Below are positions 2,801 to 9,042 of a stretch of 12,151 nucleotides of DNA, in pieces. The stretch spans positions 1 to 12,151 of the forward strand of contig JAYSRE010000068.1 of the NCBI GenBank assembly GCA_043721235.1. Direction: 5' to 3'. Below the pieces are notes generated by a model. It searched no databases, had not been told where the DNA came from, and saw nothing but the letters and a program-made list of their open reading frames with translations. The stretch comes from Polaromonas sp. Its GTDB lineage: Bacteria; Pseudomonadota; Gammaproteobacteria; Burkholderiales; Burkholderiaceae_C. The translations under genes were made by a program, and so were the position numbers. Positions within the stretch are counted from its first letter, which is position 1; the number at the start of each line of letters is the position of its first letter.

Positions 2801-4408
2801 CTACCTTGTTACCTTGTTCCAATCGAGGTCAAATTTTAGTAAATATTTGCGCAGTCTGTCGGCATCGTTCACCACGCTGCGCTGCGCGCGCGAGACGTTA
2901 AACAGCTCGCGCCCCGCGTCGCTGATGGAGTTATGTTGGCGGCATACCGCTATGACAGCTTGCAGCTGCAGGCGGTCAAAATAATCTAGGGTGTCGGCTG
3001 CGCTGCCCATCACATCTTGCAAAGACACAGCCGCGCCATTGTGGTGTGTGTTGTCACCCTCCCACTGCCAGCGCAGCCGCGCAATCTCAGCGGCTACCAG
3101 TGCAGCGCCAATACGGGCGTTATCGCCTAGGGTGGCCAACCGGGTGATAGACGCGCTGAGGTCTCTAAAGTTGCCGCTCCAAATGGCCTCGCTTGATTGT
3201 GCAAAGCGCAGATAGTCACCGCGCGCCTCGGTGGTGAAGCGCACCTGTTTGCCCAAGTCTTGCGATGCGACAGCTAGCTGATGGTCTATATTGGGCTCAA
3301 TGTCTTCGCGCCGCTGGGCCAAGCTAGGCAAGGTGTAAGTCCACAAGTTGATGCGCGCAAACAGGTCTTCTCTAAAGCGCCCAGCGGCCACTTCAGCGCG
3401 CAGGTCTTTGTTGGTACCTGCGATCAACTGAAAATCACTGGCTGCTTCTTTGTCTGCGCCTACAGGTAAAAACCGTTTGTCTTCAATTGCCTTGAGTAGC
3501 ATGGCCTGCTCGTCTGGCCCCAGTTCACCAATCTCATCTAAGAACAGTACGCCTTTGTCGGCTGTGCGCAGCAGGCCAGGGCGATCAGCGGCTGCACCGG
3601 TGAACGAACCCTTCTTGTGACCAAACAGCGTAGAGCCCGCACCGTCGCCGCGCAAGGTGGCGCAGTTCACATCGACAAAATCACCCTCGATCTGATGCCG
3701 CGCTTTCTTTAGTTCAAAGATGCGCTTGGCCAGCATCGACTTGCCCGCACCCGTAGGCCCGGTCAGCAAAATAGGCGCTTTGCTGCGCACTGCTACGCGC
3801 TCAATCTCTTCAATCAGCGTGTTAAAACGGTCATTGCGCGTAGCGATGCCGCTTTTAAGGAACGACACCGCATCCTGCTGCGCCACATTGAGCCGCGTGT
3901 TGATCGCGTCGTAGCGCGACAAATCCAGGTCAATCAGCTCGTAGCTACCCTTTTTCGCGTCGCTGTCATCACGCTGTCGTCCACGCGGCGGGGCTGTTTG
4001 CAGCAGCACACCTGGAATAAACCGTGCCTCGACCAACAAAAACATGCAAATCTGCGCCACATGCGTGCCGGTAGTGATGTGCGCCCAGTATTCTTCGCGT
4101 TCAGTGTTAAACGCATAGCGCCCCACCCAGTCGTACAGCGCGCCGTACACCTCGCCAAAATCCCATGGGTTGGCCAGGCTCATCTCAACCAAGCGCACCT
4201 CAGTGGAGGGCGAGAGTTGCGCAATGTCCGCCTGCACCCGCTGTGCTAGCGCCACATTGCGTACATCGTGCATCAGCTCTAGCCGGTCAATTTGCAGCTC
4301 ATCATGCTGCGCCAGCGACACCGTGGGCCGCCACTTCTCCCAGCGGGTGCTGGACAGGCCAGAGTCGAGTTGTGTGCCTAAAAAACCAATAACTACTTTG
4401 CGTTTCAT
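2801..4408 (-). CDS. rtcR: Sigma-54-dependent transcriptional activator RtcR (N-terminal CARF domain + AAA+ sigma-54 interaction domain)
   Basis: The N-terminus MKRKVVIGFLGTQLD matches the RtcR CARF-domain start. Walker A is LLTGPTGAGKSMLAK, the GAFTGA variant is GSFTGA, and Walker B is VLFLDEIGEL. At 535 aa it is about E. coli RtcR size, and it is divergent from an rtcB-rtcA operon. Confidence 0.9.
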   Translation of the reverse strand: MKRKVVIGFLGTQLDSGLSSTRWEKWRPTVSLAQHDELQIDRLELMHDVRNVALAQRVQADIAQLSPSTEVRLVEMSLANPWDFGEVYGALYDWVGRYAFNTEREEYWAHITTGTHVAQICMFLLVEARFIPGVLLQTAPPRGRQRDDSDAKKGSYELIDLDLSRYDAINTRLNVAQQDAVSFLKSGIATRNDRFNTLIEEIERVAVRSKAPILLTGPTGAGKSMLAKRIFELKKARHQIEGDFVDVNCATLRGDGAGSTLFGHKKGSFTGAAADRPGLLRTADKGVLFLDEIGELGPDEQAMLLKAIEDKRFLPVGADKEAASDFQLIAGTNKDLRAEVAAGRFREDLFARINLWTYTLPSLAQRREDIEPNIDHQLAVASQDLGKQVRFTTEARGDYLRFAQSSEAIWSGNFRDLSASITRLATLGDNARIGAALVAAEIARLRWQWEGDNTHHNGAAVSLQDVMGSAADTLDYFDRLQLQAVIAVCRQHNSISDAGRELFNVSRAQRSVVNDADRLRKYLLKFDLDWNKVTR

Positions 4409-4545
4409 TGGGCTAGTTTACTAGCTAGTTTTATAAAATTTAATAAATAAACAAAAATTTTTAAGTAATTAATTGCCAATAATCATAAAAATACTTAATT
4501 AAATCAAAGGCTTAAGATTTTATTTATTTATTTAATTTAATAAGT
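4409..4545. promoter_or_regulatory. Very AT-rich divergent control region between the rtcR start and the sigma-54 promoter. It probably holds the rtcR promoter, enhancer (UAS) sites and a DNA-bending site.
   Basis: An abrupt drop in GC: about 80% AT over 137 bp. It contains the 10-bp palindrome ACTAGCTAGT (about 4421-4430) plus TTAATTAA-type palindromes and the TTTATTTATTTATTTAATTTAAT periodic tract. Sigma-54 bEBP systems need upstream enhancers and a bend. Confidence 0.5.
4502..4514 (+). promoter_or_regulatory. Candidate IHF site (aATCAAaggcTTA, matching WATCAANNNNTTR), about 35 bp upstream of the -24 element
   Basis: Consensus match by eye. IHF-assisted looping is typical of sigma-54 promoters. 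Confidence 0.3.
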
Positions 4546-4561
4546 TGGCACGTTGCCTGCA
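4546..4561 (+). promoter_or_regulatory. Sigma-54 (RpoN) -24/-12 promoter, TGGCACGTTGCCTGCA, driving the SPFH-rtcB-zinc ribbon-rtcA operon
   Basis: The sequence TGGCAC-N5-cTGCA has GG at 4547-4548 and GC at 4559-4560, the exact 12-nt spacing of the TGGCACG-N4-TTGCW consensus. It is oriented toward rtcB and divergent from rtcR. The predicted transcription start is around 4570-4575. Confidence 0.7.
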
Positions 4562-4763
4562 ATAACCCCTACGTCAACCACAAAATGTGGTCGCTTACAA
4601 GAAGGGGTTGCTAGGCAACTAGGCCCCACTGGTGCAAAGAGTGCAGGGTGCAAATCCCAGCAGTTTTTGTATGCCGCGATCAACGGATGTGTTTGGTATG
4701 GCATGTGGTCAAGGGGCGGGTCATCTGGCTCGCCCCGCTAGGTTCAATTCCTGGATGCCAACA

Positions 4764-7547: not shown

Positions 7548-7558
7548 AGGAGTGTGAG

Positions 7559-7954
7559 ATGAAAAGCGGCAAGCAGCGTAGAGAGGAAATCAAAGCCAAG
7601 CGTTTAGTGCGTTTGGCCAAATGTGTTGAAGCGGGCAAATACAGCCCGCTGGATGCCATCGGCTTTGGTGCTGTAGCTGCTGACCACACACGACTCGGGC
7701 CACATAACAGCTGCGATGCGCTTCCTGATTTTTATATGAACTGCGCATTTGTCTGTAAAGACTGCGGTTCGCAAGAGCTATGGACCGCTAAGCAACAGAA
7801 GTGGTGGTATGAAATTGCCAAAGGGCCTTTTGGCAGCCGCGCCGTGCGGTGCAAACCGTGTCGCGTGATCGAGCGTGCCAGAGCAGACGAAGCCAGGCGC
7901 GTAAGCCTAGAGGGCATGCAGCGAAAATTAGCTTCACAGAAATTGAAAGCATAA
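7559..7954 (+). CDS. Small basic zinc-ribbon protein of unknown function (131 aa), inserted between rtcB and rtcA
   Basis: ATG at 7559 with a perfect AAGGAG 6 nt upstream. The ORF-track start at 7532 lies inside the rtcB 3' end. The product has a K/R-rich N-terminus (MKSGKQRREEIKAKRLVRLAK), then CAFVCKDCG …(27 aa)… RCKPCR, i.e. a CxxC-N27-CxxC zinc ribbon with a WWYE aromatic patch, and a basic C-terminal tail. Its stop is 2 nt before the rtcA ATG, so it is translationally coupled. Confidence 0.7.
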   Translation: MKSGKQRREEIKAKRLVRLAKCVEAGKYSPLDAIGFGAVAADHTRLGPHNSCDALPDFYMNCAFVCKDCGSQELWTAKQQKWWYEIAKGPFGSRAVRCKPCRVIERARADEARRVSLEGMQRKLASQKLKA

Positions 7955-7956
7955 AA

Positions 7957-9042
7957 ATGATTGAACTCGACGGCTCACTTGGCGAAGGCGGTGGGCAAAT
8001 ACTGCGTACTGCGCTTGCGCTGAGCTTGATTACGGGCAAGGCTTTTCGCATCGACAACATCCGCGCTAAGCGACCCAAACCGGGGCTGATGCGTCAGCAC
8101 TTGGCTTGTGTGCAGGCTGCGGTGGCGGTGGGTGGCGGGGCGCAAAAGACGCAGGCTTTGAACAAAGTCGGCGATGCCGTGCAAATTGGCGAAACATCGC
8201 TGACTTTCACACCGGGCAAGATTTGCGTTGGTGATTATGAGTTTGCCATTGGCACTGCAGGCAGCTGCATGCTGGTGTTGCAAACTGTGCTGTGGCCGCT
8301 GGTAATGGCCAATGGCGTGTCTACGCTTGTTCTGCGCGGCGGAACGCACAATCCTATGGCACCGTCGTTTTCGTTTTTGAGCCATGTCTTTTTAAACCAA
8401 GTGTCGCCCTGCTTCTGCGACGCGGGCAGCGTACTGTTTGAAACCGAGCTGCGCCGCCACGGGTTCTACCCCGCCGGTGGTGGTGAGGTGCAGGTGCGTG
8501 TGCGTTCGCCTATAGCTGGCATCAGGCCGATGCACATCATGCAACGTGGTGCGCTGCGCAACGCGTATGCCGAGAGCCTGCATGCAGGAGTGCCCAAAGG
8601 CGTGGCCCAGCGCGAGCTAGTGGTGCTGCAAAACGCGCTGGGTTGGAAGGATGACCAAATGCACAACCGAGCCTTGCGTGCCAACGAAGGACCGGGTAAC
8701 GCGCTGATGGCGACGCTGGAGTACGAGCACATTACCGAGCAGTTTGCAGCTTATGGCGAGCGTGGTGTAAGCGCCGAACAGGTAGCGCGCAGTGTGCTGC
8801 AAGAAGTGCGGGCATACCAAAAGTCGAACGCACCCGTGGGGCCGTACTTGGCCGACCAGTTGATGATTCCGATGGCTTTGGCAGCGGTGTATGGCGAAAA
8901 ATCGGCAAGCACTGGTGAATACTGGGCTACTGAGCTGACACAGCATGCGCAGACCAACGCGAAGGTGATTGCAGAGTTTTTGCCAGTGAAGTTTGTCTTG
9001 CAGCCGCTGGAGGATGGGGTTGTAGTGCGATGTGGGCTTTGA
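7957..9042 (+). CDS. rtcA: RNA 3'-terminal phosphate cyclase RtcA
   Basis: ATG at 7957; the ORF-track start at 7849 overlaps the upstream gene and has no support. The N-terminus MIELDGSLGEGGGQILRTALALSLITGKAFRIDNIRAKRPKPGL is the RtcA signature. LADQLMIPMALA and the His-containing LTQHAQTN region (probable site of covalent nucleotidylation) are present. 361 aa. Confidence 0.92.
   Translation: MIELDGSLGEGGGQILRTALALSLITGKAFRIDNIRAKRPKPGLMRQHLACVQAAVAVGGGAQKTQALNKVGDAVQIGETSLTFTPGKICVGDYEFAIGTAGSCMLVLQTVLWPLVMANGVSTLVLRGGTHNPMAPSFSFLSHVFLNQVSPCFCDAGSVLFETELRRHGFYPAGGGEVQVRVRSPIAGIRPMHIMQRGALRNAYAESLHAGVPKGVAQRELVVLQNALGWKDDQMHNRALRANEGPGNALMATLEYEHITEQFAAYGERGVSAEQVARSVLQEVRAYQKSNAPVGPYLADQLMIPMALAAVYGEKSASTGEYWATELTQHAQTNAKVIAEFLPVKFVLQPLEDGVVVRCGL

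Follow-up and report, generated by a model that had tools for sequence, protein, structure and literature searches.

A Band-7-type rtc operon of Polaromonas sp. and its predicted large structured leader RNA with two tRNA-like modules

The contig JAYSRE010000068.1 of Polaromonas sp. (assembly GCA_043721235.1), a stretch of 12,151 nt that is called the window below, contains an RNA repair (rtc) operon at positions 2801-9042. The activator gene rtcR on the reverse strand is divergent from a sigma-54 promoter, which is followed on the forward strand by a 564-nt leader, a gene for an SPFH/Band-7 protein, the RNA ligase gene rtcB, a gene for a zinc protein with a zf_Tbcl domain, and the cyclase gene rtcA (Table 1). 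RtcB joins 5'-OH ends to 3'-phosphate or 2',3'-cyclic phosphate ends. This set of genes had been proposed in an earlier note made from the sequence alone, and scans with Pfam and NCBIfam found all parts in their proposed places. The rtcR product was recognized by the Pfam models RtcR (273.6 bits) and Sigma54_activat (167 bits) and by the NCBIfam model NF038308 (RNA_repair_RtcR, 806.8 versus a cut-off of 650). The gaps between the genes are short, with 36 nt between the SPFH gene and rtcB, 11 nt between rtcB and the zinc protein gene, and 2 nt between the latter and rtcA, exactly as had been noted. The statement that every gene has a good Shine-Dalgarno motif held for the SPFH gene and the zinc protein gene, but the motifs of rtcB (GAGAG) and rtcA (GAAAG) are weak. 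A TROVE/Ro protein had been described as absent, and none was found with Pfam among the open reading frames (ORFs) of the window that were scanned.

Table 1. Coordinates of the genes, the promoter and the RNA elements of the rtc operon in the window
Feature	Position	Strand	Remarks
rtcR	2801..4408	-	activator; CARF-type RtcR domain, sigma-54 AAA+ domain and HTH
Divergent control region	4409..4545	.	AT-rich; between rtcR and promoter; enhancer/IHF sites presumed
Sigma-54 -24/-12 promoter	4546..4561	+	TGGCACGTTGCCTGCA; predicted transcription start near 4572
Leader, large conserved structured RNA	4572..5135	+	564 nt
Helix P1 (GGGGU...GCCCC)	4604..4627	+	helix 1 of the consensus; followed by conserved CCCCRCYGGTG motif
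Helix P2, long hairpin	4632..4672	+	helices 2 and 3 of the consensus; 11/15 pairs changed on both sides
ATGCCGC box	4671..4677	+	nearly invariant; predicted partner is a CGGCA motif ~45 nt upstream of the SPFH start
tRNA-like module 1	4699..4760	+	no D arm; acceptor-like stem TGGCAT/ATGCCA, 4699-4704/4755-4760
Module 1, internal hairpin	4713-4736	+	
Module 1, T arm	4738-4754	+	loop TTCAATT; covariation
tRNA-like module 2	4767..4833	+	full cloverleaf; Rfam tRNA 43.8 bits, E = 1e-6, above the gathering score
Module 2, arms	D 4773-4789; anticodon-like 4791-4807; T 4813-4829	+	anticodon-like loop CUCAUCA; 4-bp acceptor stem
Leader 3' domain	4884..5085	+	helix 4884-4889/4948-4953; long closing helix 4954-4965/5074-5085 around inner helices
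SPFH/Band-7 gene	5136..6275	+	379 aa; Pfam Band_7 101 bits
rtcB, RNA ligase	6312..7547	+	Pfam RtcB 424.4 bits
Zinc protein gene (zf_Tbcl)	7559..7954	+	131 aa; PF13451 46.9 bits, cut-off 24
rtcA, RNA 3'-terminal phosphate cyclase	7957..9042	+	Pfam RTC 231.6 bits; NCBIfam NF003246 374.1, cut-off 352

The presence of a sigma-54 promoter upstream of the operon is predicted from the motif TGGCACGTTGCCTGCA, in which GG and GC are ten bases apart and which is the sole exact match to the motif in the window. In 37 related loci the motif recurs on the same strand, and the SPFH start codon follows 480-590 nt downstream of it. In the window it lies in a region of low GC content (0.40 at 4401-4800, compared with about 0.55 in the flanks). 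Between 4300 and 9400, the number of sigma-70-like promoters did not exceed chance, and no terminator-like site was detected between the genes. These results are in agreement with the single RtcR/sigma-54 unit, divergent from rtcR, that had been suggested before.

The leader was folded in silico, and its predicted structure was more stable than those of all 100 shuffled sequences (z = -3.4). Sequence-based alignments of leaders from related loci were used for the comparative analysis, and RNAalifold predicted 75 base pairs in 14 helices for 26 aligned full leaders, with compensatory changes at 45 of these pairs. The consensus was compared with shuffled alignments and with registers that had been slid along the alignment. 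The fraction of paired cells was 93.6% in the observed consensus, 81.6% after shuffling, and 39-47% in the slid registers. The difference was larger for cells changed on both sides (251 versus 78 and about 45, respectively), and the value of 251 was not reached by any of 500 shuffles. The covariation score was 0.417, compared with 0.195 for the shuffled and about 0.09 for the slid controls. Changes on both sides were found at most pairs of the long hairpin P2 and at 25 of the 32 pairs of the 3' domain (helices 10-14). In contrast, helices 4 and 5, which would be formed by the ATGCCGC box and its predicted CGGCA partner, showed no variation. Five positions of the box (T, G, C, G and C) were identical in 40 of 40 sequences, and the other two were conserved in at least 90%. 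Because neither side varies, the pairing of the box stays a prediction.

The region from 4300 to 5300 was also searched with the models of Rfam at permissive thresholds (E up to 10), and apart from tRNA no family was accepted for the leader. A match to YrlA was rejected, as it reached 18.1 bits and the gathering score is 69. A match of 18 bits to the Pseudomonas small RNA P11 was likewise discarded; it rested only on the letters of the sigma-54 promoter, and the rtc locus of a Pseudomonas genome (L056) had no P11 match. In addition, a switch was considered in which GGCAT (4700-4704) would pair with the upstream ATGCC of the box, but this complementarity turned out to be specific for the window, with no counterpart in other loci. 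The closest full-length relative of the leader (L006, nhmmer 191 bits) is on a contig labeled as a Synechococcus sp. metagenome-assembled genome (MAG). The label is probably a binning error, because the rtc genes of this contig are 77-87% identical to those of the window locus, which is of betaproteobacterial type.

The tRNA mimic that had been noticed in the leader was confirmed by the Rfam match, but there are two tRNA-like modules instead of one. Two T-loop motifs (GGTTCRAWYCC) were present in 55 of 81 upstream regions, about 55-85 nt and mostly 68-79 nt apart. In module 1, the acceptor-like stem is stacked on the T arm. The sequence of this stem varies freely, while its complementarity is kept: all seven of seven positions were complementary in 31% of 39 distinct sequences versus 4% of mismatched controls, and at least six of seven in 90% versus 43%. 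Module 1 lacks the anticodon arm in most loci. In the Pseudomonas loci that were fetched, however, both modules are full cloverleaves, and there module 1 is the module recognized by Rfam.

Module 2 has an invariant D arm and a covarying T arm, and up to 22 of 42 sequences had changes on both sides of pairs in its anticodon-like arm. The triplet at the position of the anticodon is CAU in the window and CGU, AGU, UGU or GAU elsewhere, and Acidovorax-like loci have a GAAA or GCAA tetraloop in place of the whole loop. The acceptor stem comprises 4 bp in the window, compared with 6-7 bp in Burkholderia and Pseudomonas. The linker between the two modules is 0-8 nt long, and it exceeds 4 nt in only two loci. 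Because it is so short, the modules must be regarded as fused and not as separate tRNA genes. An Rfam tRNA match upstream of the SPFH gene was also obtained for 10 of 11 other loci tested. Nevertheless, ARAGORN did not call a tRNA in the window, and a genuine tRNA gene was rejected as an explanation in view of this result, the 4-bp acceptor stem, and the loop that is variable or a tetraloop in orthologous loci. As judged from their sequences, the modules are not decoding tRNAs, since the anticodon loops differ or become GNRA tetraloops and the acceptor stems are short. The alignments thus describe the leader as one large conserved structured RNA, in which two adjoining tRNA-like modules are predicted to be framed by conserved helical domains on the 5' and the 3' side. 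In one of the related loci (L009), five tandem full-length tRNA genes (58-66 bits, positions 4249-4706) are located between rtcA and the leader RNA/SPFH gene.

The SPFH protein of the window is named "slipin family protein" by NCBI. More than 7,900 database matches were retrieved, with an identity of 71% or more for the top 120. The protein consists of a Band_7 domain and a following coiled-coil helix. Its N-terminal part of about 190 residues comprises three beta modules. Neither a hydrophobic segment nor an N-terminal membrane anchor was detected, and the highest Kyte-Doolittle mean over 19 residues was only 1.26. The arrangement of an SPFH core and a long helix is shared with stomatin, HflK/C and the major vault protein (MVP), but the membrane anchor is missing, and the window does not encode an NfeD partner. 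Lacking an anchor, the protein is classified as a soluble stomatin-like variant. By analogy with its relatives, it is plausible that it forms a soluble oligomer in the shape of a cage or ring. The similarity to vault proteins was weaker than that to stomatin and HflK, and a vault-like reading is only a lead.

Scanning one GTDB genome for each species yielded at least 593 stretches that encode relatives of the SPFH protein, and 80 loci from Burkholderiales, Rhodocyclales, Burkholderia and Pseudomonas were kept for further analysis. The conservation of gene order was quantified by tblastn searches with the five proteins of the window against these loci. The earlier note had raised the question how often the SPFH gene and rtcB occur together. 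A lack of synteny was not observed, because rtcB was present downstream on the same strand in 57 of the 68 loci with at least 3 kb of downstream sequence, and in 48 of the 58 loci for which both flanks were available. A divergent rtcR was found in 48 of the 73 loci with at least 2.5 kb of upstream sequence. Among the 58 loci with both flanks, 40 contained rtcR as well as rtcB, 8 only rtcB, 10 neither of them, and none only rtcR. The region between the SPFH gene and rtcA contains variable accessory genes. The largest cluster comprises 18 ORFs, and its scanned representative is RlaP (PF10127, "RNA repair pathway DNA polymerase beta family"), the commonest accessory. Further accessories are MoxR-type AAA proteins together with DUF2201/vWA proteins, a metallo-beta-lactamase and a HEAT-repeat protein, and several families had no match in Pfam.

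Where rtcB is missing, the locus instead encodes a ClpP/NfeD-like protease, an integrase or an HNH protein. The leader RNA was kept in loci that lack rtcR or rtcB. In a Pleionea locus (L002), the Band_7 gene is located after rtcBA, and the tRNA-like elements are found between rtcA and the Band_7 gene. In two further loci (L009, L082), rtcB is upstream, and the RNA is still directly in front of the SPFH gene. In these gene orders, the RNA travels with the SPFH gene and not with the promoter or with rtcB. Five loci (L020, L038, L017, L010 and L032) have the leader RNA and the SPFH gene and no rtcR, and in them a gene for a ClpP-like SDH/NfeD-like protease often follows directly after the SPFH gene. 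This arrangement resembles the classical stomatin-NfeD pairs. Some of these loci also lack rtcB, and one of them (L020) has an integrase gene and an HNH gene nearby.

Among 5,426 complete E. coli genomes, 1,632 contain a reduced relative of the module in the chromosome, where it is flanked by the DUF3811 gene (yjbD) and lysC. The version of strain STEC639 (L089, 5660-7925) has a sigma-54-like promoter with the sequence TGGCACGCTTCTCGCA. Its leader is about 290 nt long and contains a single T arm, and its two genes encode a slipin with 54% identity to the SPFH protein of the window and a nucleotidyltransferase. Neither rtcR nor rtcB is adjacent. In Citrobacter freundii (L088), the pair of slipin and nucleotidyltransferase genes is accompanied by a divergent rtcR. 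The E. coli version is a tractable relative of the module and may be suited for the analysis of RtcR control in trans.

The zinc protein has 735 relatives in the database, all of which have the PF13451 domain. In 47 aligned homologues, the cysteines C66, C69, C98 and C101, which form two CxxC pairs, and a WT..QQKWW.E motif were invariant. The protein is basic (27 K/R versus 14 D/E). The AlphaFold2 (AF2) model has a predicted local distance difference test (pLDDT) value of 83; a search for a relative in the PDB found none, and the structure does not provide a functional lead. Co-occurrence of this family with rtc genes was the second question that had been raised in the earlier note. In five of six long contigs sampled, the zinc protein gene was part of an rtc operon, and both Ro-type and Band-7-type operons were represented. 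Two of the Ro-type operons (L001, L086) consist of a divergent rtcR and the genes for Ro, RtcB, the zinc protein and RtcA in this order. The third (L003) starts in the same way and has MoxR and vWA genes before rtcA. In one Band-7-type operon (L085), the divergent rtcR is followed by Band_7, rtcB, the zinc protein gene, the RlaP gene and rtcA. In the other (L002), the order after the divergent rtcR is rtcB, rtcA, Band_7, an RNase T gene, two unnamed genes and the zinc protein gene. The sixth contig (L087) has an unrelated context. Among the Band-7 loci with both flanks present, 11 of 58 contained the zinc protein. Its gene follows rtcB in the window and in Variovorax, and it is located between the SPFH gene and rtcB in Pseudomonas, Rhodocyclales, Accumulibacter and Thiobacillus. 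These gene orders characterize the zinc protein as a true but optional companion of rtc operons. A literature search with the Pfam names of the domain did not retrieve a paper on the family. A 252-fold co-induction by tigecycline was described for the gene that directly follows rtcB in Acinetobacter baumannii (PMC7652931). This gene may be a relative of the zinc protein and is thus a possible lead.

The locus can be compared with known systems. The association of RtcB with a Band-7 protein and a predicted non-coding RNA (ncRNA) named "b7a-tRNA" (band-7-associated tRNA) was described by Burroughs and Aravind in 2016, as summarized in a preprint on the structure of YrlA (bioRxiv 10.1101/312249). 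According to this preprint, a function redundant with that of YrlA had been put forward for b7a-tRNA. In addition, rtcR of Pseudomonas aeruginosa is divergent from PA4582 (PaFlo8)-rtcB-PA4584-rtcA (PMC8619066), and the SPFH protein PaFlo8 was described as embedded in the rtc locus (PMC13086221). The earlier note did not count the SPFH component among the parts of the described rtc systems, a view that fails because the Band-7-RtcB association was published in 2016 and the layout in P. aeruginosa has been reported. The window shares with the systems outlined in the preprint that the Band-7 gene adjoins rtcB and that an ncRNA resembling tRNA is predicted. The accessories RlaP, MoxR-vWA and metallo-beta-lactamase occur in those systems as well as in the loci related to the window. 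A possible difference is that the window shows two fused tRNA-like modules inside a conserved fold of about 480 nt. By its gene order and leader, the window locus is assigned to the Band-7/b7a-tRNA class, and no feature contradicts this assignment. The P. aeruginosa locus is similar in having a divergent rtcR, an SPFH gene in first position, rtcB, one accessory gene and rtcA. In the Pseudomonas loci, however, the zinc protein precedes rtcB and RlaP follows it.

The operon rsr-yrlBA-rtcBA of Salmonella has in common with the window the control by RtcR and sigma-54, a structured ncRNA with a tRNA-like domain, and an RNA-binding oligomeric or ring-shaped protein, which is a prediction for the window, encoded before rtcB. 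It differs in that the window lacks a TROVE/Ro protein and that the leader scores below the threshold of the YrlA model. The RNA of the window is located upstream of its own protein gene, while that of Ro-type operons is downstream. The Ro-type operons L001, L003 and L086 share the zinc protein family with the window, and in two of them (L003, L086) YrlA was detected with 75-78 bits between Ro and rtcB. A comparison of a Band-7-type locus with Ro-type loci that carry the same zinc protein showed a tRNA-like RNA in the former instead of YrlA. At the level of gene order, this supports a published proposal in which one repair module can have either of two front ends, Band-7 and its RNA or Ro and YrlA. 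With the locus of E. coli K-12, in which rtcR is divergent from rtcBA, the window shares RtcR, the sigma-54 promoter, RtcB and RtcA. The K-12 operon is not known to have a leader RNA, an SPFH gene or a zinc protein.

Based on these comparisons, we hypothesize that the operon is expressed as an RtcR-induced transcript and that the leader RNA and a soluble SPFH oligomer act like Ro and Y RNA as a cofactor of repair by RtcB. We consider this probable. The CARF domain of RtcR binds 5' tRNA halves that end in a 2',3'-cyclic phosphate, upon which RtcR oligomerizes and activates the sigma-54 RNA polymerase (PMC7790460), and the response in Polaromonas would start in the same way. One RtcR-dependent transcript would span the whole unit, and the leader RNA, either whole or processed, would be the partner of the SPFH oligomer. 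Together they would take the role of Ro60 and the tRNA-like Y RNA YrlA of rsr-yrlBA-rtcBA. The ribonucleoprotein (RNP) might capture damaged folded RNAs and present them for healing of the ends by RtcA and sealing by RtcB. The zinc protein could serve the RtcB/RtcA step as an optional adaptor that binds RNA or an enzyme and that would be combined with either a Ro or a Band-7 front end.

Several observations weigh against this hypothesis. In 10 of 58 loci, the RNA and the SPFH gene are present and rtcB is not nearby, so that the pair is not strictly tied to RtcB. The RNA is a 5' leader without a terminator before the SPFH gene, which leaves room for a purely cis-acting role. Only 11 of the 58 Band-7 loci contain the zinc protein, whose structure is without a functional lead. 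In P. aeruginosa, deletion of PaFlo8 had no phenotype in the assays used (PMC13086221), and b7a-tRNA, according to the preprint from 2018, lacked experimental validation at that time (bioRxiv 10.1101/312249). A wider reading would account for loci with and without RtcB: about 480 nt of conserved helices, a large RNA absent from Rfam, might be the dedicated RNA partner of a soluble, cage-forming stomatin-like protein, and the two might form a vault-like or Ro/Y-like cytoplasmic RNP for RNA damage control. It is put forward only tentatively.

The RNA could also be a purely cis-acting structured 5'-untranslated region (5'-UTR) and not a partner of the SPFH protein. It would then govern how stable the SPFH-rtcB mRNA is or how it is processed or translated, for instance through a large domain that closes in the vicinity of the ribosome-binding site. 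Its position between the promoter and the first gene, the predicted pairing of the ATGCCGC box with CGGCA about 45 nt upstream of the start codon, and the end of the 3' domain near the Shine-Dalgarno site would fit this function. However, the Shine-Dalgarno site is not sequestered in the consensus fold, and two tRNA-shaped modules with canonical T loops, which mirror YrlA of Ro-type operons, would be unusual for a UTR. Moreover, the RNA stays directly upstream of the SPFH gene when this gene is not the first (L002, L009, L082) or when rtcR is absent, and we regard a role exclusively in cis as unlikely. It is still less likely that the tRNA-like modules are decoys or sensors, which would be cleaved by toxins and whose fragments with cyclic phosphate ends would feed back on the CARF domain of RtcR or be re-sealed by RtcB and thereby tune the induction. 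Module 2 indeed keeps a 7-nt anticodon-like loop with U33 in the window and in many loci, but the loop is not conserved (CAU, CGU, GAU and others) and is a GAAA or GCAA tetraloop in several lineages. In addition, most versions of module 1 have no anticodon arm, and the RNA would be made only when RtcR is already active.

Lastly, the tRNA-like element might be an ordinary or decayed tRNA gene, e.g., the remnant of an integration site, and the SPFH and zinc proteins unrelated passengers. This would be in line with the Rfam score above the gathering threshold and with the five real-looking tRNA genes near the element in L009. It does not agree with the negative ARAGORN result, the acceptor stem of 4 bp, the missing CCA or discriminator context, and the fusion of the modules by a linker of 0-8 nt. 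Covariation is seen in the element as well as in the helices that flank it, all of which are conserved across bacterial orders. The SPFH gene is syntenic with rtcB in 57/68 cases and the zinc protein with rtc operons in 5/6, which is far from random. Covariation and synteny thus contradict a tRNA remnant, which we consider extremely improbable.

The operon is real and of a kind that has already been described bioinformatically and that is present in model pathogens; its basic architecture was already known and is not a discovery. Details that may be uncatalogued are a leader that is structured over its full length and contains two fused tRNA-like modules, the fidelity of the RNA to the SPFH gene, and the zinc protein common to Ro-type and Band-7-type operons. 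The locus bears on the question of what bacterial RtcB repairs and what the accessory RNAs and proteins do. With at least 593 stretches of species genomes, including those of Pseudomonas and Burkholderia, the class is widespread, and the window is a compact example that provides coordinates for the large conserved RNA and for the shared zinc protein. Both are concrete targets for RNA immunoprecipitation (RIP), electron cryomicroscopy (cryo-EM) and genetics.

A few observations concern the surroundings of the operon. The stop codon of rtcR (2801-2803, reverse strand) is one base away from the start of a gene for an NAD-dependent epimerase (1804-2799, reverse strand), and the two genes may be co-transcribed. 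In an Acidovorax MAG (L014), rtcR is directly followed by a gene for RNase P RNA (194.8 bits with the Rfam model of bacterial class A; 3210-3645, reverse strand), which may be a coincidence. The flanking genes of the window belong to ordinary metabolism and encode a DUF4147/MOFRL protein (glycerate-kinase-like), a 4HBT thioesterase, and ethanolamine ammonia-lyase (eutC/eutB); they are found at 328-1740, 9392-9850 (reverse strand) and 9862-12130 (reverse strand). At the other end of the operon, a direct repeat of 55 nt with 82% identity is present at 9042-9096 and 9313-9367, and the first copy begins at the rtcA stop codon. Both copies contain the 18-mer ATTTCCTTGGGCGATAGG, which does not occur elsewhere in the window, and the approximately 216 nt between them include an inverted repeat of 22 nt (9180-9201/9272-9293). 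The pair of repeats may be a small inserted element or the scar of a duplication.

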